Shown in pieces: positions 18,736 through 63,286 of a DNA stretch of 64,000 nucleotides. This DNA comes from a virus, in the IMG/VR virus record IMGVR_UViG_3300020045_013318, positions 13,136 through 77,135 of that record, one strand, 5' to 3'. Both the position numbers and the translations under genes were made by a program. The notes under the pieces were generated by a model. It saw nothing but the letters and a program-made list of their open reading frames with translations. It did not search any database and was not told the origin of the DNA. Numbering within the stretch: position 1 is the first letter of the stretch; each line of letters opens with the position of its first letter.

Positions 18736-18737
18736 AT

Positions 18738-39842: not shown

Positions 39843-39843
39843 T

Positions 39844-40230: not shown

Positions 40231-40231
40231 T

Positions 40232-46771: not shown

Positions 46772-47130
46772 TCTATTAGTTTAGATAAATAAGCTATTCC
46801 ACCTGCAATAACTCCGATAGAGCCTATGATTGCTGCTATATAAGCTAAAACTTTCACACCACTTGAAAGCCATTCACGAGATTTATCTAGGGGTATAATT
46901 TTATTATTAAGTTCAGTGAGGATTGTATCTTGTTCGTTCAGATGGTTTTTAATAGAATCTAATTTACCATTTACTGTAATTTGTACCGCAGAAGACACGA
47001 TTGTTTCAATAGATTTCTTGTCAGCAACATTTATAAGCATATCTCTAATTTCTCCAAAATTACGACTATCATCTAGTTCATGCTTGATTTGCCAATCGGA
47101 TATTGTTTTGAGAGTTACTTCTTTTTCCAT
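46768..47130 (-). CDS. membrane protein (holin-like position)
   Basis: C-terminal TM helix; upstream of peptidase. Confidence 0.6.
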   Translation of the reverse strand: MEKEVTLKTISDWQIKHELDDSRNFGEIRDMLINVADKKSIETIVSSAVQITVNGKLDSIKNHLNEQDTILTELNNKIIPLDKSREWLSSGVKVLAYIAAIIGSIGVIAGGIAYLSKLIE

Positions 47131-47132: not shown

Positions 47133-48890
47133 CTAATTATTAGAAAGAGCTGGCACTATAAATACAACAGCCGATGATCCTCTCATACTTGCTCCTGTTG
47201 ATGGAGTTGGAAATGTTGCAGGAAAATTAACAGCATCATAAGTTCGTGTTACTTGCCACGCACACTGCACAACACCAAAGTCTTGGTCAATTCCCATAGG
47301 ACAAGCTATAGCAGAGTTAGTAGATGAACCACGCAAAGTTGGTGTTGCGACTCCTGTCCAATAAGCAATCCAATAAAGTTTTCCTACTTCAGGAGTCCAA
47401 TTTACCGCACCAGTTATTCTTCCAGTAGCATCACTAATTAACTCGCCTGTAGAGGTTACGAGAGTGGTTGGAAAGAGAGCAGTAGATGAGGAATTTTCAT
47501 ATACGGCAAATCGTGTTCGTGAACCAGCACCACCTGCTGTTCCTACCCAACCTATAAGGGAGTTTACTTTACAATTTTCATGACATACCCACGGGAAAGC
47601 TACGATAGTGTTAATGATTGCACTTTGATTAGAAACAATCATAAACCCACCAGTTACTCCAGCTGGGTGATATAAGGTTGAGGTACTAATTGCTGTATTA
47701 GTAGTTGTTCCACTTTTGAAATCTGTTAATGACATAACAGGATTTTGCCATATAGGTTTACCTATAGTGGTAGAAGCGACAAGTGTTTGTCCGCTAAGAC
47801 CTTGCGTTGATGTACCCGTACCACCACTTGAAACTGGTAATGGGTTAGTAAGTGATAAATCTCTAGCAGATAATCCTCCTGTTATACTTGTTGTTGCAGT
47901 AGTGGAATTAGTGCGCAAGTAATCAAACTGTGGACGAGCAGTATATGACGGTATCGTTCCATTACTTGTGAGAATAGTTGAAGAAGCACCTATGCCAAGT
48001 TGGGTTAAAGATGAGGGGGCAACACCGTAAAGTAGATCACCATCTAAATAAGAACTTAATCCTGTACCTCCACTTGCTCCAATAAGTGGGGTTGATAGGT
48101 TCAATGTGCCTGCTATGTAGACATCTTTGACCCGTTTAGTTGCCGAACCGATGTCTTCAGTATTAGTAGTTACAGGTAAAAAGTTACCAGTAGAGTCAAT
48201 CCTCCACTGTTGAGTACCTGCTGTTTTGAAGATAATATCTCCCGAACTTCCAGCCGCTCCACTTATAGATAACTCCAAATGTTCATCACCTACCGAAGCT
48301 CTATTGTAATATAAATACCCTTCTTCACCTCCCAATTCTTTGAAGGACAACTTTGCCCCCTCCCCATCAGCACCATCAAATACAATCGTAGGTGTTCCAC
48401 CACTCTGTAATGTAATAAGTTCACTGTCAGTTTCAAAACTGTGTCCGATATGTAAAGCAGTTGAAGGTGTTGGTGTTCTTAAACCAAGTCTCGCATTAGT
48501 ATTGTCCCAGAAAAAATTATCGTTATTTTGTGCAACTAAACCACCAGTATTGGCGAAAAGGATAGAACCTGCTGTGAAAGGAGTGATGATTGACGAACCT
48601 GTACGAAGTGCGCCACCTGTAATAGTTAGTCCATTCGTGCTAGAAAGTCCTACTGTTGATACACCACCTGCAAAGGTGGAGGTGGCTGTACCAGTTACAT
48701 TCAAAGATGTTGTTGCGGTAAGAGTTCCAACCGTGGGTGATGTAGTAGCTGAAAGTTTTGTTATACCTGATGTGGAGGTCGCATAGATTACTCCTTGATA
48801 TGGTTTTATTATTAACTGATTTTGGTCAAAGACTTGTGCGTGAAGAGGTAAAGCAAAGAGTATAAAAAGTGATAGTAGTATTTTTTTCAT
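47133..48890 (-). CDS. tail fibre-like protein with N-terminal signal peptide
   Basis: MKKILLSLFILFALPLHA-Q; ATST repeats, FFWDNTNARLGL.T.TP, GGTG motifs. Confidence 0.7.
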   Translation of the reverse strand: MKKILLSLFILFALPLHAQVFDQNQLIIKPYQGVIYATSTSGITKLSATTSPTVGTLTATTSLNVTGTATSTFAGGVSTVGLSSTNGLTITGGALRTGSSIITPFTAGSILFANTGGLVAQNNDNFFWDNTNARLGLRTPTPSTALHIGHSFETDSELITLQSGGTPTIVFDGADGEGAKLSFKELGGEEGYLYYNRASVGDEHLELSISGAAGSSGDIIFKTAGTQQWRIDSTGNFLPVTTNTEDIGSATKRVKDVYIAGTLNLSTPLIGASGGTGLSSYLDGDLLYGVAPSSLTQLGIGASSTILTSNGTIPSYTARPQFDYLRTNSTTATTSITGGLSARDLSLTNPLPVSSGGTGTSTQGLSGQTLVASTTIGKPIWQNPVMSLTDFKSGTTTNTAISTSTLYHPAGVTGGFMIVSNQSAIINTIVAFPWVCHENCKVNSLIGWVGTAGGAGSRTRFAVYENSSSTALFPTTLVTSTGELISDATGRITGAVNWTPEVGKLYWIAYWTGVATPTLRGSSTNSAIACPMGIDQDFGVVQCAWQVTRTYDAVNFPATFPTPSTGASMRGSSAVVFIVPALSNN

Positions 48891-48891
48891 T

Positions 48892-49794
48892 TTAATAAAG
48901 ATAAGATACTAAAAAAGTATTACCTGCCGAGGCATTAGTAATGGTGATTGTATTTCCACTTCTTGTCCATGACTCTGTGGGTGTCAGTATTTGACCTTGT
49001 CTTGTAACAAACAAAATAGTTGAAAAGGTGTTAGTAAGCTGTGTTAAATTAAGTGTTACATTGTCGCCAGATTGAGTACCTTGCAAACTTTCAGTAAGAA
49101 CATTCAATCCTGTAAATGAAGTAGAAATAGTTTTTGTGCCATCAGAATTAGACACTATTGTAATATTACTTCCAGCTTGGATAATATCACCCCCACCTCG
49201 CATGACAGATTTTTCTTTCTGTCTTAAGGGTTTATTTTTTAATCCCAAAGTGTAGTCTAACTTTTGAGTGTATCCTAAACTTTCTAAACCCCTTGCAATT
49301 TCTTCCCATGTTAGCTGTGGGGCAGTTTCTTTAATTTCTTTTATAATTTCTCTAGTTGTCTCCTTAATAGGCTGAATAATAGGAATTTCACGAATAGTCT
49401 CAATCCTTTCCACTACTTTTTCAACAACAGGGGGGGTGATTTTTTTAGAAGCAACTTCGGCAATGTCTTCTATGTCTTTTTGGGTAAGCATGTAATCTTC
49501 GCCATCAAGTCCTTCATCGCCTTGTTCTCCTTTAAGTTTTTCTAAATCAATTTTAACATTCTCAATTTTTCTAGCGTAATCATGGGTATCAAAAACAAAT
49601 TCAGTGATTTTCTTTATTCCGTCTTCATGTTTAGAAAGAACATCCAATATAAATTTAGCAAATTTATCAAATTTCTGTGTAAGGTCTCGCACATCTCCAG
49701 TTTGTTTTTCAGAGAGTTTGAAGAACTGAAAGTAAGGAGAGGCTTGATATTCTCTTTTAGTGTCAAGTAATCTTTTGAGTTGCTCTTTGTCCAT
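48892..49794 (-). CDS. virion protein with short collagen-like stretch
   Basis: GEQGDEGLDGED, RGGG hinge, beta-rich C-terminus. Confidence 0.65.
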   Translation of the reverse strand: MDKEQLKRLLDTKREYQASPYFQFFKLSEKQTGDVRDLTQKFDKFAKFILDVLSKHEDGIKKITEFVFDTHDYARKIENVKIDLEKLKGEQGDEGLDGEDYMLTQKDIEDIAEVASKKITPPVVEKVVERIETIREIPIIQPIKETTREIIKEIKETAPQLTWEEIARGLESLGYTQKLDYTLGLKNKPLRQKEKSVMRGGGDIIQAGSNITIVSNSDGTKTISTSFTGLNVLTESLQGTQSGDNVTLNLTQLTNTFSTILFVTRQGQILTPTESWTRSGNTITITNASAGNTFLVSYLY

Positions 49795-49811
49795 GAGTAA
49801 ATTATAAACTA

Positions 49812-51677
49812 TTATTTGAATATATCGCTATATGCACCTTGCAATTCTGGTGGTATTTTTATTATTCCATCCCTTCCCGCAAATTCAGCCATAAAAGCAA
49901 ACCTTTCTCCTGCTAATTGTTCTTCATTTCTAATTTTATATACATTGTCTGTTTTCAAAAAATTCTCTATGTCTCTAACCATTGGTTCATTGAGTTGAGT
50001 TTCCCACACCTCATTAAATCTCTGTGGATTGAAGCCAATCCTATCTTGCATTGAGTGAACAAATTCGTGAAAAACTACATCTTCTTGCTGTAATGGTTCA
50101 AGACTTTTAGATGTATCACTCAAAAAGATTTTTTGTTTTCCACCTTTAGTTTCGGTAAGCAGAATACGATAAACAACTTCAGGAATTTTATCTCCAAATT
50201 TTTGTTCCAAAATATCAAACACCTTTCCACCAAAGGGAATATAATCAATAGGAACTACAGGACGGGTTGTTCCTACTATATTTTTTGCATCGCTAAAATC
50301 AGAAAATTCAGTTTCAGTTTTTTTTAGAAACTGTTTCGCAGTATCAGTGATTGGAAAAGTGTTTGATATATTATTTTTTAATTCTTTTCCTTTGCTAGAT
50401 TCCAAAAATGGCACATTTTCAGTTATTGTTTCTGATATTTTTGATAACAATTTAGTTGTATTCTCTTTAGATATATTCAATCCGGCGCTAACTCCTAGAG
50501 CCGTAGCCTTAACAGGGTCTACAATTCCTTTGTTAAGTAGAGCGGGTTTAACAATGCTTTCTAATGTAGATGATTTAGGCACAGCTATCATGGGATTTGA
50601 GCCGAATGTAGAGTCAATAGAAATTACTCCGTCATAACCTTTAGTCTTTATGAAATCCGCAAAACTTACTTTTGGATCAAAACCGTGAGCTAATCTCCAT
50701 TCTTTATATAGAGGATTTTTTATAAGATCGTCCCCCAAAGAGCGGAGATCAAGAACTTTCTTACCCGGAACAAAAAACTGTTTAAGTTCATTCCCATAAG
50801 GTGTTGCACCCTCTTTAGTTAAGGACAAATACTGACTATCCCCAAATTGCATACCGCCTCTTCCACCAACGGCACTGTGCATACCTGCCGAGCCTTCACC
50901 TCTAAAAGCTGTAAAGCCCTCTGGTATCTTACTTCCTTTAAGAGCATTTTCGTATGTGTTAAACCAATTCTGGACAGACACATCGTCAAACTTATCCCCA
51001 AGAGAATTCCGAGCTATTTCTTTTAAGTCATTGAATGATTTTGCTTCCGAGAAATCTATAGTTGAAAACCTCTTGGCTAAATCTTTCTTACCTTCATGTT
51101 CAAGCTGTTTGACTGCATTGTATCTGATATTATCAGCCGCATCTTGGGCTGTTTTTATAAATTCATGTGGAGCTTTTGCCCCCGCCAATCTTCCAAAAAG
51201 CCTTCCCGCTTCGTTTATAAAAGCTCCTTCTGTTAGAATCCTTGAACCTTCATGAATGGCACTTTGCACCTCATCTTCATTGCCTGTCATTTTAGCAACT
51301 ACTTGACCTGTTAGGGGCAGGTTTATTGTCGGAAAAGGTTTGCCTGTTGAGGGGTCTTTTTTAATGGTTTTGTTCAAAAAATAAGCTCCCAAATGAGACA
51401 GTTGATTAACAAGAGATGGGCCGGCTGATAACGCTCCCTCCATGACAGATTCTCCAGTTTGTAACGGATTTGTAACAGCCTCTTTTACCACTTGACCTCC
51501 TGCGTGTGGCAATTCAGTTAAGACATCTTTAGCTGTTTCTATGGGCTTGTATTCGGAGGGTGTGGCAGGTTTTTGGAGAAGAATGTTTTTGAAAGTACCT
51601 TGCAAGCGTTCCCTTAAAGGTGGGGATTGATTGGAGATTCCTAAGCGCTCTTGGATTGTTTGACTTTGTGGAGGCAT
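49812..51677 (-). CDS. polyvalent ejection protein: ART-like domain plus HExxH metallopeptidase
   Basis: AFRG..FGDSQYLS....A..YG..KGYDGVI; VVFHEFVHS..E.FA. Confidence 0.7.
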   Translation of the reverse strand: MPPQSQTIQERLGISNQSPPLRERLQGTFKNILLQKPATPSEYKPIETAKDVLTELPHAGGQVVKEAVTNPLQTGESVMEGALSAGPSLVNQLSHLGAYFLNKTIKKDPSTGKPFPTINLPLTGQVVAKMTGNEDEVQSAIHEGSRILTEGAFINEAGRLFGRLAGAKAPHEFIKTAQDAADNIRYNAVKQLEHEGKKDLAKRFSTIDFSEAKSFNDLKEIARNSLGDKFDDVSVQNWFNTYENALKGSKIPEGFTAFRGEGSAGMHSAVGGRGGMQFGDSQYLSLTKEGATPYGNELKQFFVPGKKVLDLRSLGDDLIKNPLYKEWRLAHGFDPKVSFADFIKTKGYDGVISIDSTFGSNPMIAVPKSSTLESIVKPALLNKGIVDPVKATALGVSAGLNISKENTTKLLSKISETITENVPFLESSKGKELKNNISNTFPITDTAKQFLKKTETEFSDFSDAKNIVGTTRPVVPIDYIPFGGKVFDILEQKFGDKIPEVVYRILLTETKGGKQKIFLSDTSKSLEPLQQEDVVFHEFVHSMQDRIGFNPQRFNEVWETQLNEPMVRDIENFLKTDNVYKIRNEEQLAGERFAFMAEFAGRDGIIKIPPELQGAYSDIFK

Positions 51678-51750
51678 TGTGGTAATTTCAAATTATGATA
51701 TTGCTTATACTATTTATTGTTGGTTGTGGAATTTTCGCCTTATTTTATGA

Positions 51751-53553
51751 TTAAATTTGAATGTCAGGTTCCATCTTATTTGGATCAAATCTTTCTAATG
51801 GGTTTAGTATGGGAGTATTGTCTATATCTTGAATAATAAACCCTTCACCAACAGCGTTTCCTTGAGATCGTTGTTCTAAAATATACTGAACTATTTGCTG
51901 TTGTTCTTCTTTGTTTTTAGCGGCACGAATAAGAGACTGCTCTTGCCTCGTAAGTGGTATGGGATTTTTTGTAATAAAACCTTTTGTACCTTCACTCATA
52001 GTAAATCCAGCTTTTTGTAATTCATCTGCCAGAAGAGCCATTTTTTGTGTTTCTACTTTTATATTTTCTAATTTTATCAAAATTTCTTGCGCCCTTTTTG
52101 TTATTTCAATTAAATCAGCTTGAATTGGAGGTTTTACTTTGGGAAATCCAGCAAGAGCTTTCGCGGCGAAAGCGCGCACTGTTTCGGTGGATAATAATTT
52201 CTTTGTCACAAATCCTGCAAGAAACTTTGGACTAACAATTCCCGGAGTAATTGCAATCCAATCAGTAAGTGTCATTGAATTATTTGCACCTTGACCTATC
52301 ATTTTACCAGCGATTTCGTCTCCAAGAAATTTACTTGCCTGTATCTCTTTGTTTATTTCACGAAGATTAACGAACCCATTATTGTCAGCGATTTCAAGTT
52401 GCGCCTCACGAATACCCGAGTCTCTATTTGTAGCTCTTTGAACTTGCTCTGAAGTTTTTGTCGGGTCTTTTTTGTATCCTGTTTTTATATTTCTCTCATA
52501 AAAACGCTTCACTTCACTTATTTCAGGAGCAGTAAGACCTTCACCTTTTGCTTTTTCAGCAAGCATAGAAATCCGACTAGCTTCTCTACTTTCAGTACTG
52601 ATAGCAAATTCAGACGCTTCATCAGCTACAATTGTAATTCTTTTGTCTCTGAATGTTCCCGGGATTTTATCAAAAGCCTCATCAACATTTTCTCTTAATG
52701 ATTTGAACCTTGTTGCAAGCTCTGTAATTGTCTGTTCTCTTGTCCCAATAATACCCCTATCAACAAGCCATTTTTCTGGAGAAATTTTTTGTTGTAATTC
52801 AAATTGTTGTCTTTTCGTAGGATTTAATCTATTTATATTGGCAACGATTGATTCCGATAAATTAGTACCGAGAGGGGCTAATTTATCACCTTGCTTTACT
52901 GCCCCTTCGACAATATCATTCTTGATTGATCTAGCTGTTCCCCTAGTCGTATCAATCGTATTTTTTAATACGCTTTTACTTTCTTGAACAGCAGTTTTAA
53001 TAGCTGTTTCAGCAGGTTTACCTCCAACCATTAGAAGTAAGGCATCTCCCAAATTTCTTGTGTTTTTTGCAATATCAGGATGTTGCTGTTCAAGTTCATT
53101 AGCTTTTTTAGAAAGTACAGAAAAAACATCTGAAACTTTATCAAGAGTCCATTCTGTTATAGGTCGTGTTGCAAGCCATTGCATACCGGGAAGGTCGGAA
53201 TATGCTTTTCCTATACCCTCGAGACCTGTTCCAACACTTTTCAAAAATGGTTCAGCAAGAGTTCTTCCCGCTTGAAAAATGGAAAAAGAAGCTCCTCGAC
53301 CTAATGCTGCAGCTTTTCCAATTATTTTAGGTTCTTCTCGTATTGCTTTGAAAGTGTTTTCCACTTCTTGTTGTGTTTTAGCGTACTGTTCATTAAAACC
53401 CGTTTCTTCCCCAAGTTGAAAAGCCGCTTCTTTCAAATTCCTCTCGTGTGGATTTTCTTTCAGAGAATTAGCAATTTCATCAATGTCTTCATCCGTAGGT
53501 TCATTTTCAAATTCTGCCACATATCCGTTTTCAAATTCTACTTGATAACTCAT
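51751..53553 (-). CDS. internal virion/ejection protein
   Basis: YQVEFENG...EFENEPTDEDIDE N-terminus; helical; position. Confidence 0.65.
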   Translation of the reverse strand: MSYQVEFENGYVAEFENEPTDEDIDEIANSLKENPHERNLKEAAFQLGEETGFNEQYAKTQQEVENTFKAIREEPKIIGKAAALGRGASFSIFQAGRTLAEPFLKSVGTGLEGIGKAYSDLPGMQWLATRPITEWTLDKVSDVFSVLSKKANELEQQHPDIAKNTRNLGDALLLMVGGKPAETAIKTAVQESKSVLKNTIDTTRGTARSIKNDIVEGAVKQGDKLAPLGTNLSESIVANINRLNPTKRQQFELQQKISPEKWLVDRGIIGTREQTITELATRFKSLRENVDEAFDKIPGTFRDKRITIVADEASEFAISTESREASRISMLAEKAKGEGLTAPEISEVKRFYERNIKTGYKKDPTKTSEQVQRATNRDSGIREAQLEIADNNGFVNLREINKEIQASKFLGDEIAGKMIGQGANNSMTLTDWIAITPGIVSPKFLAGFVTKKLLSTETVRAFAAKALAGFPKVKPPIQADLIEITKRAQEILIKLENIKVETQKMALLADELQKAGFTMSEGTKGFITKNPIPLTRQEQSLIRAAKNKEEQQQIVQYILEQRSQGNAVGEGFIIQDIDNTPILNPLERFDPNKMEPDIQI

Positions 53554-55811
53554 TTTTTTATAATTTTAACTTTATTGCCACTCGCTGTAGTACGCATATT
53601 TCCTTCTAATTGAGATAACACTTGTTGATCTTTTACAATAATTTCTTTACCGTCGGGGAGAAGTTGTATCCACTTACTATCCTTTTTTTGAAAGGTTGCC
53701 TGTGATGGATTTCCCAAATCATCTACCGTATTTATTACTTTTACTGATTTTCCAGTATCATCCACCGTATCAATTATTTTTCTTGAACCTCCTGTAGACT
53801 GCAGAGCAATCGGAGTTTGATAATACAAACGAGCTTTTGATTTAAGTTGTTTTTCAACATCATTTCCTGCTAAATGAGTTTTATTGAGAGAAGGCAAACC
53901 TATTGAATTGCGTTCAGAATTCAAAACTACTAATCCATTTCTTTCTAATTCGTCTAATTTTTTCTTCACAACTGTTAATGTGTCAGTAATTTGTGGTATA
54001 GAAGGTTCAATTATCCTTTTCCACTCATTATCAGTCATGGCTGTTCCCGCTCTTTCCTTTTGAAGATTAGCTGTTAAATTAGTAAAATATGCTTTAAGTT
54101 CTTTTTGTTTTGAGGAATTAAATCTTCCGATCCAATTTCCCAAAGTACCCGCAACCGGGCCACCCGGAATAAAAAGTCCATTTTCATCTAACAATCCTCG
54201 TATTTGATCTGCTTTGGTTATTGCGAATCTAGTGCTAGATTCAGAAATAAAATCTGTTCCAGCTCTCTGTTGTGCCATTCCCATCATGTGATTTTCAAAC
54301 TTCTGAACTGCCAAATCTTCTCTATTGGAATTTATAAGTGCCGCCATATTAGCTGTATCAGATTGTGTCCAATTCTTATCAAGCATCTTAAACATATCTC
54401 TCATTCCTGCGGCAAAAGGAGTTTCATTTTGAATTCTAAAGCCTGAAAGAGTATCGCCAATTTTGGAGGCAGGTACTCCCGCATCATAATTTTGTTTAAT
54501 AATTGATTTGTAATAATCAGATTCAGCTACCGAGTTCCTAACCTGAATCGGAATTTTGTTCATTGCCGTCAATTCATAATCAAGGTACTCAAGACTTTTT
54601 GGAGATGAATCTGCTTTTGCTTTAAGTTCTTTATCTTTTGGAACATAAATCTCTTCAAGAACTTTCATCTCTTGTGGAGTAAGTTTGCTTCCATATTTTG
54701 CTTTGAAATTTAACCATCCTGTCTTTACAATCTCATCATATACAAACTTTTGTGACGCACCATCAAGTCCTGCACCGAGCAATTTCATCGTATCGCTACT
54801 TGTAAAACGATCTACCTTTTTGCTTTCAGGCTCTTTAACTGAAATATCATCAATATAATTCTTAATTTCATCTGTTGAAACTTTACCTTTAAGTGCTTCA
54901 TAAATACTTGAAACAGAACCATCCGTACCGATAGCTGCATCGTGAATAAGCGTTTGGTTATTCAACTTCGTAGAATCTTCCACAGCTTTTTTATTAAGCG
55001 TAACTAAATTCTTATCAAATTCAGCAAGAGCTTTATCTTTTTCTTTACGAATATCCTGCAAACTTTCATACTCTTTCATGGCAAGAGTTAAAGATTGCTC
55101 ATTAAAAGCATTATTTACCTTATTTATTGCATCTCGCTCTTGTGAATTTAATTCACTAACTTTTTGTAATCCCTGTTGAACTACACCTTCAATTTGTGAA
55201 GCCATAACAGTTGGAGCATATTGTCCACCTTTACGGATTCCAAGAGTTACAGAAGCGTTTTCTCTCCTACGATTTGATTCAACTAATTGATTGCGAAGTA
55301 TAGAGAATTGAGAATAGATTGAATCAATTTGTGCTCTTTTACTTTCTTCCATTTGAGCTTTAATAGGATCAAGAGAAGTTTTTATAGATTGTTCTTGTGA
55401 ATCAAAGCTTGTTATTAAATCATTTCTAATTTTTTCATTACTCAACTGTTCTGGTGTTTTAGTGCTATCAATTTGACTCTGAAGAATTTTATCTTCTGCT
55501 GTAGGAGGAATAGTTTTAGAAGTTTCTGTTTTGGGTGTAGTTTCTGGCTTTCTATTAGTATCATCCATTGCCTTATTAACAACCGCAACACCAGAACCAG
55601 ACGATATTGTAGATACGGGTTGAATCTTTTTACTTTTTTCTATATCTTCAACAGATAAGGGTCTAGCCGCTCTACCTTCAGCAATATCTGTAATATATGA
55701 TTCAGTACCTGTAGCAATTCTATTTTGCTCTCCAGAATCTCCAGTTTCGTAGAGTTCAAATAAATTTCCTTTTTGTTGAGTGGTGTATGCCATGTTTAAT
55801 ATGCTTTCCAA
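53550..55811 (-). CDS. internal virion/ejection protein
   Basis: coiled coil, RAGTAMTDNE motif similar to 9976-11415; start may be 55793. Confidence 0.65.
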   Translation of the reverse strand: MESILNMAYTTQQKGNLFELYETGDSGEQNRIATGTESYITDIAEGRAARPLSVEDIEKSKKIQPVSTISSGSGVAVVNKAMDDTNRKPETTPKTETSKTIPPTAEDKILQSQIDSTKTPEQLSNEKIRNDLITSFDSQEQSIKTSLDPIKAQMEESKRAQIDSIYSQFSILRNQLVESNRRRENASVTLGIRKGGQYAPTVMASQIEGVVQQGLQKVSELNSQERDAINKVNNAFNEQSLTLAMKEYESLQDIRKEKDKALAEFDKNLVTLNKKAVEDSTKLNNQTLIHDAAIGTDGSVSSIYEALKGKVSTDEIKNYIDDISVKEPESKKVDRFTSSDTMKLLGAGLDGASQKFVYDEIVKTGWLNFKAKYGSKLTPQEMKVLEEIYVPKDKELKAKADSSPKSLEYLDYELTAMNKIPIQVRNSVAESDYYKSIIKQNYDAGVPASKIGDTLSGFRIQNETPFAAGMRDMFKMLDKNWTQSDTANMAALINSNREDLAVQKFENHMMGMAQQRAGTDFISESSTRFAITKADQIRGLLDENGLFIPGGPVAGTLGNWIGRFNSSKQKELKAYFTNLTANLQKERAGTAMTDNEWKRIIEPSIPQITDTLTVVKKKLDELERNGLVVLNSERNSIGLPSLNKTHLAGNDVEKQLKSKARLYYQTPIALQSTGGSRKIIDTVDDTGKSVKVINTVDDLGNPSQATFQKKDSKWIQLLPDGKEIIVKDQQVLSQLEGNMRTTASGNKVKIIKK

Positions 55812-57370
55812 ACAAATGTTCTGGTAGTACCAGAAGCCGCCCCTGCACTATCATTTGTACTCCAATTTAGAGTAAAAGTTGTTGTGGTAATAGCAGTAAT
55901 TGAAGCCGCCACTTCAGTATTACCCTTTGCATCTGTGCTGAAAATTATATTTGACGAATTTGCCCCTTGTTCATTCGGCCATTCTTTACTGCTACAACCA
56001 TCACCATTACCGAAATTCCTATAAATACTGTATCCGCTTAATGTTGAAGTTGAATATCCTGAACCAGAAAATTCTCCATTTATACTCCCTCCAGTACAAG
56101 TTGCTCCCAGTCTGCCTGAAAAATGAATTTCAATAAGTTGTGGTGCTCTACCTAAATTGTGAGTAATAATTTGATTACCAGTTGTTCCAGCAGGTTGTCC
56201 TGCATTTCCAGTAGAAACACTAGGAGCACCAAAAACTACTACCCCGTTAGCATCAACTGTCAAAGATGTAGAAGAAGCAGGTTGTGTAGATGGAAAATTC
56301 AAATATACTCCATTTATCTTCAAGCCACTTGATGTAGCCGACAAGTTATTTACTGTTGTTGTTGCCGCACCCAATCTAATCGTACCAATATCAAGAAGAA
56401 GTTGAGTAGCGCCCCCACTAGAAGAAGTAGCTATAAGTGTTGGATCAATAAAACCACTTGAATTAGTTACCACCACCCTATTACTATCACCATCCCTACG
56501 AGTTGAAGAAGATATTGAAGTATCAAGCACAAGAGGTTTTACAAGGTCAATAGGTAAACCTGCCGCTGCTTCTGCACCCGTGGCAAGTTCTACAATACCT
56601 CCATTGGTTACAGTTGAAGTAGCCGCACCTTGTGCCGCAACAGAATTAACATAAGCCCTTGAAGCAACCTGTGAGGTAGTTGTAGCGGCAGTAAAACCTG
56701 TGCCTTCTATGATTGGAGGAGTTGTAAAAGACCACAAACCACTAACAAACTCATCATTAGTTTTTGCCGTGTACTGATTGTGAAATTGTGGAGGATCAGA
56801 AAATATAACTGATGAATTACCACCATGAGCAAATTGAAGTGTGGTTGAAGCTGTAAAAGGAGGAATAGGAGAAAGCCCACGAGTACAACCAGAAAGTGTC
56901 GCTGTACCATTAGAATTTTGAACAACAGTAGTACAAGAAGCTATTTCCTGTTTACTCCTATTGCCCGGTTCAAGAGTTAGATAAAATGTAGTAGAAAGAT
57001 CGGAATCTACGATTTTTTGTCCAGTTTGAGGAAGTGTTAATGAAGATAGAATTATTGAACTTGCTGATGATGAAACACCTGAACTAAAAAGTGTATATGT
57101 ATGCCCCGCAGTTGGTAATACATTTGTTGCTCCTAATACGGCATCTTCATTTTGACTACTCACATACGAACTAATCAGCTCTGTGATTTGTTTACCGTAA
57201 TCAGTCTGTCTTTGTTTAAGATTTTCTATTTCTACATTAGCTTCTAAAATTTCTGATTGATCTTTTTTTATTTCTTTTTTAAGTTCTGTATTTTTATTAA
57301 AAGTATCAATTCCAAAAAGACTGGATGCTACTAGAGAAACTATGGCTATAAAAGAGGCTATAATGTTCAT
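55796..57370 (-). CDS. tail fibre/spike-like protein with N-terminal hydrophobic anchor
   Basis: MNIIASFIAIVSLVASSLFG, coiled coil, VLGA, LSGCTRGL, GIVELAT.AE, ITHNLGRAP. Confidence 0.7.
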   Translation of the reverse strand: MNIIASFIAIVSLVASSLFGIDTFNKNTELKKEIKKDQSEILEANVEIENLKQRQTDYGKQITELISSYVSSQNEDAVLGATNVLPTAGHTYTLFSSGVSSSASSIILSSLTLPQTGQKIVDSDLSTTFYLTLEPGNRSKQEIASCTTVVQNSNGTATLSGCTRGLSPIPPFTASTTLQFAHGGNSSVIFSDPPQFHNQYTAKTNDEFVSGLWSFTTPPIIEGTGFTAATTTSQVASRAYVNSVAAQGAATSTVTNGGIVELATGAEAAAGLPIDLVKPLVLDTSISSSTRRDGDSNRVVVTNSSGFIDPTLIATSSSGGATQLLLDIGTIRLGAATTTVNNLSATSSGLKINGVYLNFPSTQPASSTSLTVDANGVVVFGAPSVSTGNAGQPAGTTGNQIITHNLGRAPQLIEIHFSGRLGATCTGGSINGEFSGSGYSTSTLSGYSIYRNFGNGDGCSSKEWPNEQGANSSNIIFSTDAKGNTEVAASITAITTTTFTLNWSTNDSAGAASGTTRTFVWKAY

Positions 57371-57384
57371 GTTATTATTATATA

Positions 57385-59250
57385 TTATTTTCTAATTTCA
57401 GTGGCAATTCTTGGTGAAATAGACACATCTACCGCTCCATGAGCAAGTATCGCCCAATATCTATCAGTTGAATTAGTGCTAAATATTGTTTGTAATTCAA
57501 AAAAATCTTCCGTAGCTTCTTCAAAAACAACTCTAAATTTCCTAGCATTTTGAGGAGTAGCCAATGCTCCGCCCAAATTATTTTGAGCTAAAGGGTCTTG
57601 TGCAAGCGAAGTTAAAATATCCGCTCCCACAATTATATCTTCATCTCCACCATCTATAGTTTCAAAAACCTGTTGTGTATGAGCATTGAAATCATAATTC
57701 AGAGTTAATAACAAATCATCTGTATTTGGAGTAATTTCACCTTCAACTAAATACTCGTTAAATTTCTTTAATTTTCCTCTATGTCCATAAGAACGATATG
57801 ACAATTTAGCCAAGGCATTGATTGATACTTTTTCATCTTGTGCTGTATCAGAGTTATATACCAAATCGGATAAAGATTCATTTTCAGAATCCAACATTTT
57901 GAATACTTCAGGGGTGCTATTAGAAAATCCATGTAACCATCCATCTATAACTCCCCAAGCTCTTACAGCACCAATTTGAGGAGCCTGCCAAAATCTTCTT
58001 GTTCTACCGTCAGCATCTTCCAAAAATTCCAAAATATAATACCTAGAATTGGCAGGAGCAGAAAGAAAATAAGAATTTTTCCACCAAGTAGCGCAAGCGT
58101 TGGTAAAATCTTCAGCATCCATATCTGGCTTAATAGGATAAGACAATGTTTTGAGTTGTGCCCCCTCTATATTTTCTGGCTGTTCTAAAATCCTTACGGC
58201 AGGTTCAAAAGAAAGATAAATAATAGCATTTCCCACAGACACTATTGATTCAGGAGTTTGCGGTGTTTGATTTACTCCTGTTTTTAATTTTTTAACTTTC
58301 AGAGTCTCTGACAACGCTGACGAAACAGTATCTTGTTCAAATTCAACCTTAAAAGCATCAGATTTTCCACAAAACATTACAGGAATATTAGAAACAGAAG
58401 CCATACCCCTTGAAAGACCAGTTAAAGAAAGTAAGGCACCTTCACCAAAAGCTCTCGGAGTAGAGAAAGAAAAATCTGTATAATCATCGTTTTGAGAAAT
58501 ATAAACTTCATTATCTTCTTCTGATCCAACATATATCTGATTTTCATGCGAGAAAATAGTGTGATTATTCCTAGAGGCGGCAGGTTTGTTACTTCTTGTT
58601 GCAATTTTCTGAACTAAAACATCTCCCGAGACCATACCATCAGTAACAGGTGAACCTGATACAGTTGTCAGGGTTGTTGTTGTCTCTCCTCCTGTATAAG
58701 TAAATTCTGTGCCAGTTCTAACATTTATTAAAGTTTTATCTCCTGTTGTATAAAATCTATTTTGAGCAAAAGTATTAGTTCCTTTTTTTGTTATTGTTGT
58801 TGCAGTAACAGAATCTACAACACATACAGCACCGTTCCATTCATATAAATTAGCATTGCCTTGAACAAAAATAAGTTCATCAATATTTTCTCCTGTATCC
58901 CACCAAAGAGTAAATCTGGCAATTTTAGCTGCTGTTAAAGCAGAAGATATAATATAGAAATTATTAAGAACAACACCATCAATTGTTCCTAAATAGACAG
59001 CTAGTTTTGTATCATAAGTAAAAATAGGAAGCTCTGTTCCTGTTGAAGTTCCCCAAACTATTGCATTTTTAGTTGGATTATTTTCAGTATTGGCAACACC
59101 TAATCTTGTCGTACCATTGCGAATCCTTACTTTTTTTTGAGAATCAATAATGACATTTTGAGAACCAATAGCTAAATAACGATAATCAGCATTGGTCTGA
59201 TTTTGTGCACTTTGATAACCTAATACTTCATTTAATATATTATCTTTCAT
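57385..59250 (-). CDS. tail nozzle/stabilisation protein
   Basis: 621 aa beta-rich protein directly after adaptor. Confidence 0.6.
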   Translation of the reverse strand: MKDNILNEVLGYQSAQNQTNADYRYLAIGSQNVIIDSQKKVRIRNGTTRLGVANTENNPTKNAIVWGTSTGTELPIFTYDTKLAVYLGTIDGVVLNNFYIISSALTAAKIARFTLWWDTGENIDELIFVQGNANLYEWNGAVCVVDSVTATTITKKGTNTFAQNRFYTTGDKTLINVRTGTEFTYTGGETTTTLTTVSGSPVTDGMVSGDVLVQKIATRSNKPAASRNNHTIFSHENQIYVGSEEDNEVYISQNDDYTDFSFSTPRAFGEGALLSLTGLSRGMASVSNIPVMFCGKSDAFKVEFEQDTVSSALSETLKVKKLKTGVNQTPQTPESIVSVGNAIIYLSFEPAVRILEQPENIEGAQLKTLSYPIKPDMDAEDFTNACATWWKNSYFLSAPANSRYYILEFLEDADGRTRRFWQAPQIGAVRAWGVIDGWLHGFSNSTPEVFKMLDSENESLSDLVYNSDTAQDEKVSINALAKLSYRSYGHRGKLKKFNEYLVEGEITPNTDDLLLTLNYDFNAHTQQVFETIDGGDEDIIVGADILTSLAQDPLAQNNLGGALATPQNARKFRVVFEEATEDFFELQTIFSTNSTDRYWAILAHGAVDVSISPRIATEIRK

Positions 59251-60416
59251 TTATTTCTTCTAAAAGGTCTAGTAGACCAATACTTCCCGACAGGTCTTTT
59301 AGCTTCGCTAGGATGTTCTGCTCTATACAGTTGATACAATGAAGGAAGTTCGCTATTAGCATAATTTATGTCAAAAACACTATCCTTACCTTCCATTTGT
59401 TGAGCTATTGCCTTAAGAGATTCAAGTGTAAAAATCTGTAAGGAAGTCCCTGTGAGAACCAATGAATCACTATCACTGGTTGGTTTAGAAATCCATGTTC
59501 CTCCAGAATTTTTGAAAAGATATTGAGAATAATATTTAAGATCAAAAATTCTACCTAAAGAGACAAGAATATTGTCTACCCTAATATTATTTATCGCTCC
59601 AGTTGCCGCTACTGTTAACTTGAATGAATCAATGGTAGATGGAGTAACCGTTCCTGTTTCTGTCGCTGTACTCCACGGAAATAACAAAAAATTCCAACCT
59701 ACTCTAAAAGCTGTTCCATCAGCTTGTGTTGTTTGAGCAACAGAAGTCCAGTATTGTGTAGTCAAGTCATTTCCAAAGATAAAAGTTAATGAAGTTAGAT
59801 TTGATATAGAACCAAAATAAACAGGAACGATAAAACCTCCCAATTCATCTTCTGTAGATAAATCAACAGATGTTAATGTGGTATTTTGTATACCATCTCC
59901 AGTAGCTACGAGATCAAATTCTATTGAAGCTGTGCCTGATAATTTATAAAGCGTATTAGCTTTAAGTCCTGTGGCGCTACCAACAGTTGAAATCGTGCCA
60001 TTTGAAGTCAAGGAGTCCATTGTGTGCAAAGTTTTTGCTGAAGAATCTTTCCAATCAAGCCTCAAAAACTTAACCCCCTCCAATGCCTCTATAGCAATTC
60101 TTTTATTAGATAAACCCAATTCTGCTGAAAAAGGTTCAGACAAAACCCTAGAAGCTCTATCAGATGATTGCCTATCTTGAACAGGGGCGATGTCAATTAT
60201 TTTTTTATAATCCGCAGGTAGTGGATAATTTTGCAAATCATCATGTACGGCAGAACTTAATTCTTGTAATCTAATTGTTTCAACTGGATCAAGTTTAGAA
60301 AGCAAAGTATTAGCTACTCGCTCATATAAAGCATTTCTATTTCTCACTCTTTTAAGAGAACCTCCATGTGCAAGTCCTGTGAGATTTTCTTCAAGTTCTA
60401 TAATAGTTTGGCTCAT
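59247..60416 (-). CDS. head-tail adaptor/tail tubular protein-like
   Basis: NYPLPADYKKIIDI, LKYYS. Confidence 0.6.
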   Translation of the reverse strand: MSQTIIELEENLTGLAHGGSLKRVRNRNALYERVANTLLSKLDPVETIRLQELSSAVHDDLQNYPLPADYKKIIDIAPVQDRQSSDRASRVLSEPFSAELGLSNKRIAIEALEGVKFLRLDWKDSSAKTLHTMDSLTSNGTISTVGSATGLKANTLYKLSGTASIEFDLVATGDGIQNTTLTSVDLSTEDELGGFIVPVYFGSISNLTSLTFIFGNDLTTQYWTSVAQTTQADGTAFRVGWNFLLFPWSTATETGTVTPSTIDSFKLTVAATGAINNIRVDNILVSLGRIFDLKYYSQYLFKNSGGTWISKPTSDSDSLVLTGTSLQIFTLESLKAIAQQMEGKDSVFDINYANSELPSLYQLYRAEHPSEAKRPVGKYWSTRPFRRNK

Positions 60417-60856
60417 TAGTAGTTAAATTCAGTTACAACAAAAGTAGTAGCATTAGTTGAAATACAATGTATTGCTCCTTGTTGAACACCTGTGCCAGAG
60501 TTCATTACATAAGTCGGAGTGCTAGAAGAAAGAGCAAATGACCAGTTTGTTAAAGAAGCCACATTATCATTTTCCATATTGCAATAAACTGATGTACTTA
60601 AATTTCCAACATATTGAAATAAAAGATTATCTCTTTGAATAGGAGGAGTATAAACAGAAGAATTAGTTGTTGAAGCTAAAGCTCTATAACTTGTACCTGC
60701 AACTAAAGTAATAAGAGTAGAAGAAGCAGAACGATAACGATGGGTTGTTTCAAAACCACCAAGTAATTTTGTGCCTTGAGGTCTGCTATAGAACAAAACC
60801 CCAGCGAATGCGAGTATGCAAACACCGAGTATAATGTGAAGTTTGTTTATTTTCAT
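60416..60856 (-). CDS. virion-region protein with N-terminal TM/signal and LLGG motif
   Basis: LHIILGVCILAFAGVLFY then KLLGG. Confidence 0.7.
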   Translation of the reverse strand: MKINKLHIILGVCILAFAGVLFYSRPQGTKLLGGFETTHRYRSASSTLITLVAGTSYRALASTTNSSVYTPPIQRDNLLFQYVGNLSTSVYCNMENDNVASLTNWSFALSSSTPTYVMNSGTGVQQGAIHCISTNATTFVVTEFNY

Positions 60857-60879
60857 GTTTAATTTTTAATTTTTAATAT

Positions 60880-60928
60880 GAGCCGAACTCTATCTTGCCC
60901 CCATAAAGGAGCAAGTAGAGTCAAGCTC
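60880..60928. terminator. long intergenic hairpin after capsid-associated gene
   Basis: GAGC..ACTCTA.CTTGC/GCAAG.TAGAGT..GCTC. Confidence 0.5.
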
Positions 60929-61410
60929 TAATAACACGCTCTAGTAGATGTCGCCCATCCACCTGAAGGAAAACCATTAGCGTTTCCTGCGGACGCACCC
61001 GAACTCGTGGCAATAGTATAATAAATATAACCATCACCAGTAGGGGCTTTTGCAACAAGACAAAGCCTTTCTGCAAGAATAGTTGTTGTTCCACCAGAAT
61101 TACCTAATGAAAATAATGCACCGGGAGTAGAACTTCCTATGCCTATTCTATTATTCGCTGCACTTACAACGAGTGTATTTGTATCTGCTACAAAATCACC
61201 CGTTGCGCTTAAAGAACCTGATCCTGCGACTATACCATTTGGGAATCTTGAGCCTATTGCTCCTAATTCTCCGTTTATAGCTTGCTCTACCACTGATTTT
61301 ACATCATCAATGGTTATAGATGGTTGGTTATTACCACCAACCACTATTGCCGAAATCACGACTGCAATCACAATCGTAACTATGGCGGTAACAATGTTTT
61401 GTTTATTCAT
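60928..61410 (-). CDS. capsid-associated protein with N-terminal TM/signal and ELGA motif
   Basis: IVTAIVTIVIAVVISAIVV then ELGAIGSRFPNGI, NRIGIGSSTP. Confidence 0.7.
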   Translation of the reverse strand: MNKQNIVTAIVTIVIAVVISAIVVGGNNQPSITIDDVKSVVEQAINGELGAIGSRFPNGIVAGSGSLSATGDFVADTNTLVVSAANNRIGIGSSTPGALFSLGNSGGTTTILAERLCLVAKAPTGDGYIYYTIATSSGASAGNANGFPSGGWATSTRACY

Positions 61411-61434: not shown

Positions 61435-62400
61435 TTACGCACCCGTCAAAAGCTGATAGCCTTCCCATGTTGCAGGAAAAGCTACTTCCAAATATCTTGA
61501 ACGATATTCCCATGAATCTGTCCTTGAATATCTAGGCTCAATTAGATCATTTTCTACTTCTGAAAGAACTTTCCTAAAAATGTGATGATCTTCAGAAATA
61601 ATGTGAACTGCCGTAGCTTTAACAGTACCTGAATCCCATGCTGAATTTAGATAAAGCGACTGTCCTATTGCAAGCTGTCCATAATCAGTCTCAAAGATAT
61701 TTAGATTATTCTCTGCTGAATCTGCAATCAAATCAGAATTAAGAACTTCTTTAAGATGTTTATACTGTGTTGTACAAGTAAGAACTGCAAACGGAGAATG
61801 AACTCCAGAAATCTCTCCATCCTGTCCTATTTGTGTATGCAAAGAAACAAAACTCGTCCAAAGAGTATCCGGTGTCAAGGCTCCTGTATCTCGGTTATCA
61901 ACCGTTCCTCCTGTCTTCAAAGCCACATGTGAATTAGAACCAAGAGTTGCTCCATCTGGAGTCGTGAAGTATGTACCATCAGCCGCATCTCCATAGGTTC
62001 GCACCATCGCAGTTCTATCTTTAGTTACCTTCATTCTGGTTCCAACCTGTCCTCCGATAGACGCTCGTTTTCCAACTTGATCTGTCTTAAATGCCTCGGC
62101 TGAAACTGGAATAGACTTCATCCATTTTTTTAGACGAACAGTTTTCTGATTTCCAATGAAAGTATTTTCTGTTTTAATTTCTTCTTGTTCTGAAGTCTCC
62201 AAAAAACCACCAACATTAGAATCTTCATCCCAAATATAAGCAATAGTATCTATTGGAGAAGTCTTAAAGAAAATTGAATCAACACCCACATAAGAAGGTG
62301 CATTATGTATATTCATTTTCTCAAACAATGCTTCGTCTATTGCCGTTTGGCATGCGTCTACGCTCAAAAGTGTAGTATGACCACCTGAAATTGTATTCAT
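61435..62400 (-). CDS. major capsid protein (phage B)
   Basis: 321 aa; PDG..L.SNSH, N...GALT..TL motifs of Mu gpT-like capsids; position. Confidence 0.7.
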   Translation of the reverse strand: MNTISGGHTTLLSVDACQTAIDEALFEKMNIHNAPSYVGVDSIFFKTSPIDTIAYIWDEDSNVGGFLETSEQEEIKTENTFIGNQKTVRLKKWMKSIPVSAEAFKTDQVGKRASIGGQVGTRMKVTKDRTAMVRTYGDAADGTYFTTPDGATLGSNSHVALKTGGTVDNRDTGALTPDTLWTSFVSLHTQIGQDGEISGVHSPFAVLTCTTQYKHLKEVLNSDLIADSAENNLNIFETDYGQLAIGQSLYLNSAWDSGTVKATAVHIISEDHHIFRKVLSEVENDLIEPRYSRTDSWEYRSRYLEVAFPATWEGYQLLTGA

Positions 62401-62424: not shown

Positions 62425-62885
62425 TTATGAAATATCGTATCTCATAGCCCGAGGATCAACCGTAACATCTAAGAGACCTTGCTCAAAGATTCCTCCTTTA
62501 ATTGTTAAACCCGAAGTATCAGCAGCCGCAGTTTGATCTATAGTAAAAGTATTAGTATTAGCTGCATCAAACAAAACCACATCCCACAAAAGCCCTATAA
62601 GTTCTGTCAATGTGTCTACGGAAGCTGCTGTTTTTGCCTTTCCACGAAGCCTAGTCCAATTAGGGATAGGCTCTACAACATCTACCCAATCTGCATCTAC
62701 AGTTGTATCAGTTCCTACTGGAGCATCTTGTGCAGAAATACCTACAAACGCGTCTGTACCAATTACAGGTGTAGCATCTCCAGCTAATACAACTGTATTA
62801 GCACCAGAAACTCCTGATGTAAGAGCCTGAACTACCACCAAAGGTTCTCCTGCGTAAAATCTCGTGGCGCTAGCGGCGACACGAT
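62425..62885 (-). CDS. capsid cement-like protein, 5' end missing
   Basis: frame open back to RVAASATRFYAGEP at ~62885, where coding strand flips. Confidence 0.55.
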
Positions 62886-63286
62886 GTTTTTGTACGGCAG
62901 AAGTACCGATAGTTTCAAAATAATTCTTTGGTATTTAAGAAATCAAAAATATACTGATGTAAAGATAAAGAATGAAATTTTAACACTTTCAGTTTGTCAT
63001 CTATTTAATACAGTTTCTAGTGATGATATTTTGAAAGAGGTAGATGGAATTTATTATCTTGAAGGAAAAAATTCTCAATGTCTCAAAAAAAGATTTGATG
63101 GAACAAGCTATACTTTTGAATAAACTTCCTTTATGGAAGATTCTTAAAAAAGATGTTCAATATCAACTTCGTAAAAAGATGTTTGAGGAAGCAACTGTAG
63201 AACTTGATTTGGTATGGGGAAAACTAACAACTTTTCTTTGGGATATAATAAATACCAGAATAGATAATCTAAGAAAAGGGAAATAA
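62886..63286 (+). pseudogene. frameshifted inverted fragment of a phage head-region gene
   Basis: ORFs 62884-63123 and 63044-63286 read as one protein across a frameshift in A runs. Confidence 0.45.

Follow-up and report, generated by a model that had tools for sequence, protein, structure and literature searches.

Predicted export leaders on fibre-like proteins of a divergent tailed-phage lineage

Leader-bearing genes in the phage B operon

The DNA analysed here, referred to as the window, is a stretch of 64,000 nucleotides that covers bases 13136-77135 of a 77,135-bp virus record in IMG/VR (IMGVR_UViG_3300020045_013318). The window carries two unrelated structural modules, which we call phage A and phage B. 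The subject of this work is phage B, a late operon on the minus strand that extends from 45458 up to the record's end, and within it four genes for fibre-like proteins that begin with hydrophobic leaders (Table 1). Two of these genes come directly after the capsid gene and encode the family 1 and family 2 proteins; the third encodes a protein that we call the fibre, and the fourth encodes the last large fibre-like protein of the operon. An earlier reading of the sequence (the original prediction) had proposed that these proteins are made as membrane-targeted precursors that share an LG[AG] motif.

A protein was scored as leader-bearing when a 15-residue Kyte-Doolittle window reached at least 1.8 within its first 50 residues. 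Exactly four open reading frames (ORFs) of the phage B operon (45.4-62.9 kb) are flagged by this threshold, and they are the four, all on the minus strand, that had been listed as starting with signal or transmembrane (TM) segments. The statement that the positional counterparts in phage A have no such leaders also held, since the threshold flags nothing in the phage A structural module (6285-25193). Three of the leaders consist of about 17-20 hydrophobic residues behind a short basic N-terminus, which is signal-anchor-like, and the fourth, on the 585-residue protein, is a classical signal peptide. The median TM length is 19-19.5 in the three signal-anchor families. Small residues of the AXA type at positions -3 and -1 are present in the 585-residue protein (LHA/Q) and are not evident beside the TM segment of the other three window proteins. 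Membrane targeting as first proposed stands, except that three of the four leaders resemble uncleaved signal anchors rather than short signal peptides.

The leaders are a property of the relatives as well. The single 621-residue tail-like protein of phage B gave no relative when it was used as the query for related loci, and an alignment of 35 fibre homologs (alignment A1) succeeded: the scan based on it returned 44 IMG/VR loci and three contigs binned into metagenome-assembled genomes (MAGs). There are 39 non-identical loci, 35 of which can be evaluated for the slot between the capsid gene and a 385-residue gene further downstream. A leader is present in 113 of the 120 fibre homologs listed; five of the other seven fall just under the threshold and one, on a short contig, begins at the tripeptide described below. 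Family 1 has an N-terminal TM segment in 30/30 of the relatives that carry it, family 2 has one in 25/25 (alignment A3), and the slot of the last large fibre holds a leader-bearing protein in nine of the ten relatives that reach it. As a control, an N-terminal hydrophobic segment was found in none of 128 representative homologs of the major capsid protein (MCP).

More than 235 homologs of the fibre are present in the database, and most of them lie on contigs that do not exceed about 45 kb. In alignment A1 the mean pairwise identity is 0.25 for the TM segment, 0.17 for the linker, 0.70 for the N-domain, 0.36 for the shaft and 0.17 for the C-terminal part. The AlphaFold model (mean predicted local distance difference test, pLDDT, 64) has a helix over residues 2-76, a low-confidence stretch over 73-84 and then a confident beta domain. 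With this N-domain, the best VIA-align match was 8jov_1, a 116-residue chain of the portal-tail complex of phage GP4 (Z 9.1, root-mean-square deviation [rmsd] 5.1, 109 residues aligned), followed by the tail tip of phage Chi (Z 8.9) and the JBD30 baseplate (Z 7.9); in the ESM Atlas it resembles small viral proteins (TM-score 0.84) and the SU10 adaptor family (TM-score 0.58). Pfam and PHROG searches gave no match for the conserved N-domain. The C-terminal Pfam domains of the homologs vary (Collar PF07484, PF21722), and nine short proteins, which are probably fragments, came from a search for stand-alone N-domains. A conserved N-terminal domain joined to a variable C-terminus is also the arrangement of particle-bound fibres of the T7 gp17 type, and the N-domain is likely a particle-binding domain.

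Family 1 proteins share a conserved peptide of about 30 residues that is followed by unrelated C-terminal domains. In the family 1 alignment (A2) R55 is invariant and G50, G53 and G59 are nearly so, and the window protein has two cysteines after its TM segment. Family 2 comprises 24 sequences linked by blastp, the window protein included, and a search of sequence families (Pfam, PHROGs and NCBIfam) gave no match for it. Its AlphaFold2 model (mean pLDDT 76) has a helix at residues 5-23 and a beta-sandwich at 43-145, and between the two lie residues 30-35 (KLLGGF) with values below 50. The best VIA-align rows for the ectodomain are subunits of Bacillus endospore appendages (7a02_A, Z 9.2, rmsd 10.8, 101 residues aligned; 8pdz_R, Z 7.8), and further matches are the PM2 spike (Z 7.7), a Helicobacter phage cement protein (Z 7.3) and XepA of PBSX (Z 6.5). 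In BFVD the model has many uncharacterized look-alikes from Caudovirales. Among the 35 evaluable loci, the slot before the 385-residue gene holds family 1 in 30, a family-2-type TM protein in 25 and both in 23. In four loci (L025, L030, L033 and L034) a leaderless protein of 91-94 residues stands in place of family 2; we rejected the idea that the 94-residue replacement is a family 2 homolog (hhalign probability 0.2%).

The last large fibre-like protein has no close homologs. Its 56 homologs are distant and partial, and seven of them, the query included, have a hydrophobic N-terminus, so its leader was assessed by position only. Counterparts in the same slot were compared in ten loci. Nine of them (594-1040 residues) have a leader and that of L012 does not; AXA-type sites were read in seven of the leaders, the one of L020 has a lipobox, that of L033 has neither and that of L035 is more like a TM anchor. 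The 585-residue protein itself has a weak PHROG tail-spike match and four cysteines after the leader. In the complete relative G002 the last fibre (35750-41164) has 1804 residues, a signal peptide and 16 cysteines, and it is followed by another signal-bearing protein, of 389 residues. The original prediction had called the downstream parts of the four proteins fibre and capsid-decoration domains; fibre-like they are, and the decoration label is a guess from gene position only.

Table 1. Positions of the features discussed in the text, numbered from the first nucleotide of the window. KD15, highest Kyte-Doolittle value over 15 residues.
Feature	Coordinates	Strand	Remarks
Family 1 gene, 160 residues, first after the capsid gene: signal anchor, linker, LGA, conserved peptide (IGSRFPNG...), small domain with a Cys pair	60928-61410	-
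Family 1, hydrophobic segment (about residues 6-25)	61336-61395	-	KD15 3.32
Family 1, motif L49-G50-A51	61258-61266	-	directly before conserved G[TS]RFPNG in 26/30 members
Family 2 gene, 146 residues: signal anchor, LLGG, jelly-roll beta-sandwich with one Cys pair	60416-60856	-
Family 2, hydrophobic segment (about residues 7-23)	60788-60838	-	KD15 2.95; helix 5-23 in the AlphaFold2 model
Family 2, motif L32-G33-G34	60755-60763	-	pLDDT <50 at residues 30-35; loose motif in the aligned column 16/25
Fibre gene, 524 residues, after the 621-residue tail gene: signal anchor, long helix, LGA, conserved N-domain, shaft, variable C-terminal domain	55796-57370	-
Fibre, hydrophobic segment (about residues 2-20)	57311-57367	-	KD15 2.39
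Fibre, motif L79-G80-A81	57128-57136	-	pLDDT <50 at residues 73-84; column 79 is L/F/V/I in 34/35 sequences
Fibre, conserved N-domain (residues 85-195)	56786-57118	-	pLDDT >80; C146 and C162 conserved at >=90%
Last large fibre-like gene, 585 residues, classical signal peptide, just ahead of the holin-like gene and the lysin	47133-48890	-	KD15 2.36
Signal peptide MKKILLSLFILFALPLHA followed by Q (residues 1-18)	48837-48890	-	K-rich n-region, h-region, L-H-A at -3 to -1
Major capsid protein, 321 residues, leaderless	61435-62400	-	Pfam Phage_capsid_4, E 2.6e-5, under the curated cut-off
Two leaderless core tail-like genes (389 and 621 residues), between family 2 and the fibre	57385-60416	-
120-residue protein with a C-terminal TM segment, holin-like by position	46768-47130	-	small TM proteins in the same slot of relatives
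437-residue two-domain peptidase	45458-46771	-	N-terminal part papain-like; C-terminal part Cys-His cell-wall hydrolase-like by eye
Phage A terminase	25521-27083
Phage A portal	23331-25193
Phage A capsid gene	21418-22476

The boundary tripeptide and signs of export

The tripeptide [LIVFM]-G-[AGS] opens the conserved part of the protein in three unrelated families. The family 1 copies counted in Table 1 include the strict form LG[AG] in 14 cases. Of the 95 fibre sequences that a regular expression could anchor, 78 have the tripeptide at a distance of 3-11 residues ahead of AGxTYxL (strict form in 35), and inspection by eye showed it in 21 of the remaining 25. The strict form occupies the aligned column of family 2 in 12 of the 25 sequences. 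The background of the tripeptide in the same proteins is 0.007-0.008 per residue. Because the sequences within a family are related, the independent evidence amounts to three families and not to about 150 sequences. In the window proteins the motifs are where the original prediction had placed them (Table 1; LHA/Q at residues 16-18/19 of the 585-residue protein). Its wider claim, that LG[AG] is conserved after variable linkers, came through in part: a motif is shared by three families, and in the relatives it is looser than LG[AG].

Several observations concern what the tripeptide separates. It falls in the low-confidence linkers of both AlphaFold models, that of the fibre and that of family 2. 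The fibre of the complete relative G004 has an ordinary signal peptide, and the predicted cut (..SAFA/ADTVKPIGG) abuts the conserved domain, at the place where others have ..LGADTVLPIAG. A signal-peptidase site at the edge of the domain suggests that the mature protein starts there. As a sequence pattern, the tripeptide fits a boundary at which the anchor module would be removed. The modules that precede this boundary differ among the 120 fibre homologs: eight have a signal peptide with LysM, nine have a signal peptide with a domain of about 55 residues of the KQLWEY type, one has a lipobox and 102 have a TM segment or something else. The anchor modules are interchangeable across the lineage (TM helix, LysM, lipobox).

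There are two further, independent signs of export. The N-terminal flank has a more positive charge than the 15 residues that follow the hydrophobic stretch in 28/30 family 1 proteins, 24/25 family 2 proteins and 109/113 fibres. Such a positive-inside charge bias predicts that the N-terminus stays inside and that the remainder of the protein is outside. The second sign is the number of cysteines, which were counted after residue 30. It is even, odd or zero in 27, 0 and 3 of the family 1 proteins, in 23, 0 and 2 of the family 2 proteins and in 119, 1 and 0 of the fibres (2 to 12 cysteines), and the counts of the nine leader-bearing last fibres are all even or zero. Leaderless proteins of the same phages behave differently, with even and odd counts in 5 and 20 MCPs, 13 and 21 homologs of the 389-residue protein, 13 and 25 of the 621-residue protein and 9 and 16 of the 138-residue ORF ahead of the capsid gene. 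Taken together, cysteine-containing leader proteins are even in 169 of 170 cases, compared to 40 even and 82 odd for the leaderless proteins (Fisher p = 1.7e-40, with the sequences being related and not independent). The counts vary widely and yet stay even, and the pairs are placed differently between subfamilies, as is the case for the single pair of family 2. A bias toward even numbers of cysteines is a recognized mark of exported proteins with disulfide bonds, and to judge from their sequences the leader proteins carry the cysteine signature of extracytoplasmic folding.

Together, these results make it very probable that the four genes encode fibre-like proteins that are Sec-exported, held at the envelope by a removable N-terminal module and folded outside with paired cysteines, and that this is a core trait of the lineage. 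The host Sec machinery would move the four proteins across the cytoplasmic membrane. The removable module would then tether them at the envelope; in the window it would be the signal-anchor helix, and in relatives its place may be taken by a cleaved signal peptide with LysM, a different small domain or a lipid anchor behind it.

The record, the lineage and the neighbouring genes

The relatives share a common gene order, which begins with the portal, two small genes, an acidic scaffold-like gene, a 175-residue gene, the capsid gene, family 1 and family 2, continues with the 385-residue gene, a 615-residue gene, the fibre, two or three large proteins and a protein of about 250-300 residues, and ends with the large fibre, a small TM protein and the lysin. 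We take this order to resemble that of phage T7 (portal, scaffold, capsid, two tail genes, fibre, large internal proteins, fibre, holin, lysin). Three relatives with direct terminal repeats (G002, G003 and G004) are rated complete at 40.8-44.4 kb, and their terminase-position ORFs were assigned by gene order alone. As a whole, this large and uncultivated lineage of short-tailed phages is known from hundreds of metagenomic proteins and from genomes of about 40 kb with terminal repeats. The three MAG contigs were binned as Patescibacteria, Thermoplasmata and Woesearchaeota; they may be phage contigs that were co-binned with small cells. A Shine-Dalgarno-like motif stands upstream of only one of 14 phage B genes and five of 24 phage A genes, and the upstream regions are A/T-rich, which is a weak hint about how the host initiates translation.

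The phage B part is very divergent. Pfam and PHROGs yield only the sub-threshold capsid match and weak tail matches, and for the four leader proteins Pfam, PHROGs and NCBIfam gave no useful family but weak generic fibre matches and a spurious beta-lactamase row. Sequence searches of the PDB with the 621-, 389- and 437-residue proteins gave nothing meaningful. Homologs of the 389- and 621-residue proteins are nevertheless present in 44/44 related loci, with up to 68-69% identity, and the 389-residue protein has a weak PHROG match to 'tail protein'. Three large proteins encoded after the fibre (753, 600 and 621 residues; 49812-55811) have no cysteines at all, and the homologs of the 753-residue protein are cysteine-free in 14 of 16 loci; freedom from cysteines would suit large proteins that need to unfold for passage through the tail. 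A leaderless protein of about 250-300 residues (48892-49794 in the window) precedes the last fibre in the relatives too. The 138-residue ORF with a TTG start (62425-62934) has counterparts of 175 residues in the relatives, with the alignment reaching 62934, and it is probably longer than called; the gene is duplicated in L003 and L035. Cysteine-rich ORFs that are zinc-finger or HNH-like lie between the capsid gene and family 1 in L003 (5564-5935), L004 (655-1218) and L036 (5331-6047), and similar ORFs lie ahead of the capsid gene in L003, L009, L023 and L033.

At the downstream end of the operon, the 120-residue protein has no family match in Pfam, PHROGs or NCBIfam. The original prediction had put forward the peptidase at 45458-46771 as the enzyme that cleaves the precursors. 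Sequence searches with this 437-residue protein in Pfam, PHROGs, NCBIfam and the PDB were all empty, and its catalytic residues were read by eye. The ESM Atlas look-alikes of its N-terminal 270 residues carry Peptidase_C1 (36-100% of members) and some carry Peptidase_C39_2 (scores 0.95-0.97, TM-score up to 0.87). The papain-like N-domain was found in the records of four of ten relatives. Of the five records with a rated completeness of 90% or more, G004 and G009 have a clear copy of the domain and G003 a weak match (E 1e-3), and with the window peptidase as the query none was found in G002 and G008. Since G002 keeps the motif in all three families (G003 keeps it in the fibre), the 437-residue peptidase is not a general processing enzyme, and we dropped it as the universal processor of the motif. 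It is more simply presumed to be the lysin.

The record itself looks like a join of phage A and a phage B fragment of about 22 kb (42138-64000). The portal, scaffold and terminase of phage B are missing from the record, and its first 13 kb have almost no similarity to B-type relatives. Homology of the B type begins at 42138, directly after a 12-bp tandem array (41891-42119) that also occurs at 1582-1633, and an assembly jump through this shared array could have made the join. A tandem or related pair of phages was rejected as an explanation of the window, since the only gene that phage A and phage B have in common is GroEL-like, with 27% identity. The GroEL-like gene, together with a preceding ORF of 86-88 residues, is present in all three complete B-type relatives; it lies at 42856-44834 in the window, 14169-16163 in G002, 129-2095 in G003 and 4263-6253 in G004 (40-43% identity). 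Near the end of the record, 63095-63277 on the plus strand is a homolog of a small gene that follows the portal in relatives. Its strand is opposite to that of the B operon, and this flip could be a rearrangement or a fold-back artefact. The flagged ORF of phage A that is nearest to its structural module, and outside it, is 5065-5526 (153 residues, hydrophobic N-terminus). Over 86 residues it is 44% identical to a signal-bearing protein of 131 residues in G002 (13684-14079), and the two may represent a shared exported lysis protein.

Possible roles of the exported proteins and known systems

What the exported proteins are for is a separate matter from their export. Tentatively, we favour the idea that they are the phage's own fibres and decorations, which are joined to the particles at or after lysis, with the anchor removed. 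DNA-filled particles without fibres would be built in the cytoplasm. The holin and the lysin would open the envelope, so that particles meet the tethered fibres, which would attach by way of the conserved segment starting at [LIVFM]-G-[AGS]. The anchor module would be cut at or near the tripeptide by some peptidase. As a side benefit, the binding domains on the outside could occupy the receptors of the dying cell. We infer membership in the virion because the genes sit between capsid and tail genes in the 35 evaluable loci, because the N-domain is the best conserved part of the fibre (0.70) and its C-terminus is variable, and because the fold of the N-domain resembles parts of portal-tail and tail-tip complexes (Z 9.1 and 8.9; SU10 adaptor, TM-score 0.58). 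Particles of T4 and T7 that lack fibres can reportedly be completed in vitro with free fibres. In its fullest form the proposal would be a widespread lineage of tailed phages with a compulsory extracytoplasmic step, in which fibres are exported, folded oxidatively, parked at the envelope, clipped at the tripeptide and added when the cell opens, and in which they cover the receptors of the infected cell until then. We offer this form with more reserve.

A number of points weigh against assembly of exported fibres onto the particle. Export puts the fibres across the membrane from the particles that are being assembled, and joining after lysis must beat dilution. LysM and lipid anchors could equally well serve permanent residence in the envelope. 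The tripeptide may mark no more than where each conserved segment begins, or it could be a docking strand or a flexible hinge, and it is weaker in family 2 than in the other families. The papain-like domain was not found in two of the complete relatives (G002 and G008). Families 1 and 2 are not essential, since they are missing from some of the 35 evaluable loci: L012 and L033 have neither, and in L034 family 2 is absent and the family-1-like variant falls outside the regular expression. It may be the leaderless protein of about 250-300 residues that is the true fibre. With the fibre model as the query, Foldseek returned nothing from the PDB at E <= 0.001, and the fold matches of the N-domain are middling (Z 7-9). 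The leaders were called with our own hydropathy and charge scripts on genes taken as longest ORFs, and the GenBank phage collection (50,697 records) gave no matches for the MCP, the 621-residue protein or the fibre.

The main alternative, serious if doubtful and already raised in the original prediction, is that export takes place and the proteins do not become part of the particle. They would stay on the envelope of the infected cell, where they may mask or destroy receptors, form a surface structure or help lysis. A role at receptors could serve superinfection exclusion and keep progeny from adsorbing to debris, and the conserved segments could then be used for envelope complexes. All evidence for export applies equally to this alternative, and LysM and lipid anchors suit permanent residence. 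The best look-alikes of the family 2 jelly-roll are disulfide-linked subunits of endospore appendages, and XepA, which is exported, is also among its matches. No universal phage protease was found among the relatives, and a true fibre may be available in the leaderless protein before the last fibre. Llp of T5 and the Cor lipoproteins are exported exclusion proteins encoded beside tail genes. On the other hand, the genes belong to the core set and are placed between capsid and tail genes rather than at the ends of the operon, as accessory genes would be. The fibre joins a conserved N-domain to a swappable C-terminus, which is typical of fibres bound to particles, and this N-domain resembles parts of tail complexes. 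Moreover, four exported fibre-like proteins, of up to 1804 residues, would be a heavy investment for exclusion alone.

It is improbable that the hydrophobic N-termini are not export signals at all but retained, buried anchors or peptides that insert into a membrane during infection, as in the ejection proteins of short-tailed phages. This would agree with the length of the three window leaders (about 19 residues), with their lack of obvious AXA sites and with the fibre leader running into a long helix, possibly a trimeric coiled coil. However, the leader sequence is not conserved (identity 0.25) while its hydrophobicity is kept, as expected of signals, and relatives swap the helix for cleavable signal peptides, LysM or a lipobox. 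The charge bias predicts N-terminus in and C-terminus out, and the cysteine parity distinguishes the leader proteins from virion proteins of these phages that have no leader.

A particle that contains lipid, with an HK97-type capsid plus a membrane in which the leaders anchor spikes, is very improbable. Several proteins of the virion module do have a single N-terminal TM helix, and the family 2 jelly-roll is also similar to spike or coat proteins of PM2 and PRD1/PR772 (Z 6.1-7.7). Against this, the MCP is of the tailed-phage type (by a weak Pfam Phage_capsid_4 match), the complete relatives have portal, terminase, scaffold and tail genes, the cleavable signal peptides of many members would leave no anchor, and no lipid-related genes were noticed.

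There is only a negligible chance that over-extended starts of ORFs called as the longest possible, together with a short tripeptide that has a background of about 0.8% per position, created the pattern, because all four leaders begin at the first Met with no usable start after it, leaders turn up repeatedly in four gene slots and across dozens of loci and 120 homologs, compared to 0/128 in the control, and three families have the motif at the same boundary. A search for in-frame starts with a Shine-Dalgarno-like motif near the tripeptides found none; the sole start that was flagged is the GTG at codon 99 of the 146-residue gene, far downstream inside the sandwich. A leaderless isoform made from an internal start was therefore rejected.

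If the exported proteins are parts of the virion, the assembly of a tailed phage can include an extracytoplasmic step, with consequences for how fibres are stabilized and how hosts could block assembly. It would also affect the recognition of structural genes in metagenomes, where a leader usually causes a protein to be dismissed as non-structural. Otherwise, the lineage would use fibre-like proteins of its own to alter the infected cell's surface, for which there is no description either. Under either reading, the architecture of anchor, motif and domain offers a direct experimental handle. By the usual view, all parts of tailed phages fold and assemble in the cytoplasm, and export signals on fibre-like proteins encoded among capsid and tail genes conflict with this rule of wholly intracellular assembly. 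Full-text literature searches, in which most sources were represented by their abstracts, gave no description of Sec-targeted fibres in tailed phages or of the anchor-motif-domain architecture.

Each of the nearest known systems has part of the features of the phage B proteins and none has the full combination. XepA of PBSX (PDB 6i56) is an exported protein from the late or lysis region of a phage-like element, with a beta-sandwich like that of the family 2 ectodomain; the match is weak and one of many to jelly-rolls, and XepA is not known to be fibre-like or to be encoded between capsid and tail genes. The Ena subunits of endospore appendages are jelly-rolls with a Cys-bearing N-terminal connector. 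In family 2 the position of the Cys pair varies between subfamilies.

Llp of T5 and Cor of phi80, N15 and T1 have export signals, are encoded in or beside tail-fibre genes and act at the envelope, as the phage B proteins are predicted to do. They are, however, small accessory lipoproteins unrelated to fibres, whereas phage B has four core proteins of 146-585 residues (up to 1804 in relatives) with fibre architecture. A lipobox is present in none of the four window proteins, in one of the 120 fibre homologs and in one of the ten proteins of the last-fibre slot.

C39 papain-like peptidases cut the double-glycine leaders of bacteriocins and competence peptides after GG, GA or GS. The tripeptide would offer a similar G-G, G-A or G-S site, and the phage B operon encodes a papain-like peptidase with some Peptidase_C39_2 look-alikes. 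Double-glycine leaders are nevertheless short and non-hydrophobic, and an ABC exporter cuts them with its peptidase domain, whereas the phage B leaders are hydrophobic Sec signals or anchors, with 17-128 residues up to the conserved domain and a hydrophobic residue at -3. Inspection by eye found no ABC exporter with a C39 domain among the ORFs of the window or of the three complete relatives.

In Peptidase_S74 fibres such as the K1F endosialidase and T5 pb1, a helper region of the precursor is removed after folding, comparable to the proposed loss of the anchor module. That helper is C-terminal, self-cleaving and cytoplasmic, whereas the dispensable region of the phage B proteins would be an N-terminal export and anchor module. 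Pfam gave no S74 match at E <= 0.01 for the 524- and 585-residue proteins or at E <= 0.1 for the 146- and 160-residue proteins, and S74 is carried only by distant partial matches of the 585-residue protein.

Much as proposed for phage B, the filamentous phages make virion proteins, pVIII and pIII, as signal-bearing precursors that are inserted into or exported across the membrane and added to the particle at the envelope. They have no cytoplasmic capsid and are extruded without lysis, whereas phage B has an HK97-type capsid gene, a holin-like gene and a lysin, and its complete relatives, unlike the filamentous phages, have genes in the portal and terminase positions by gene order.

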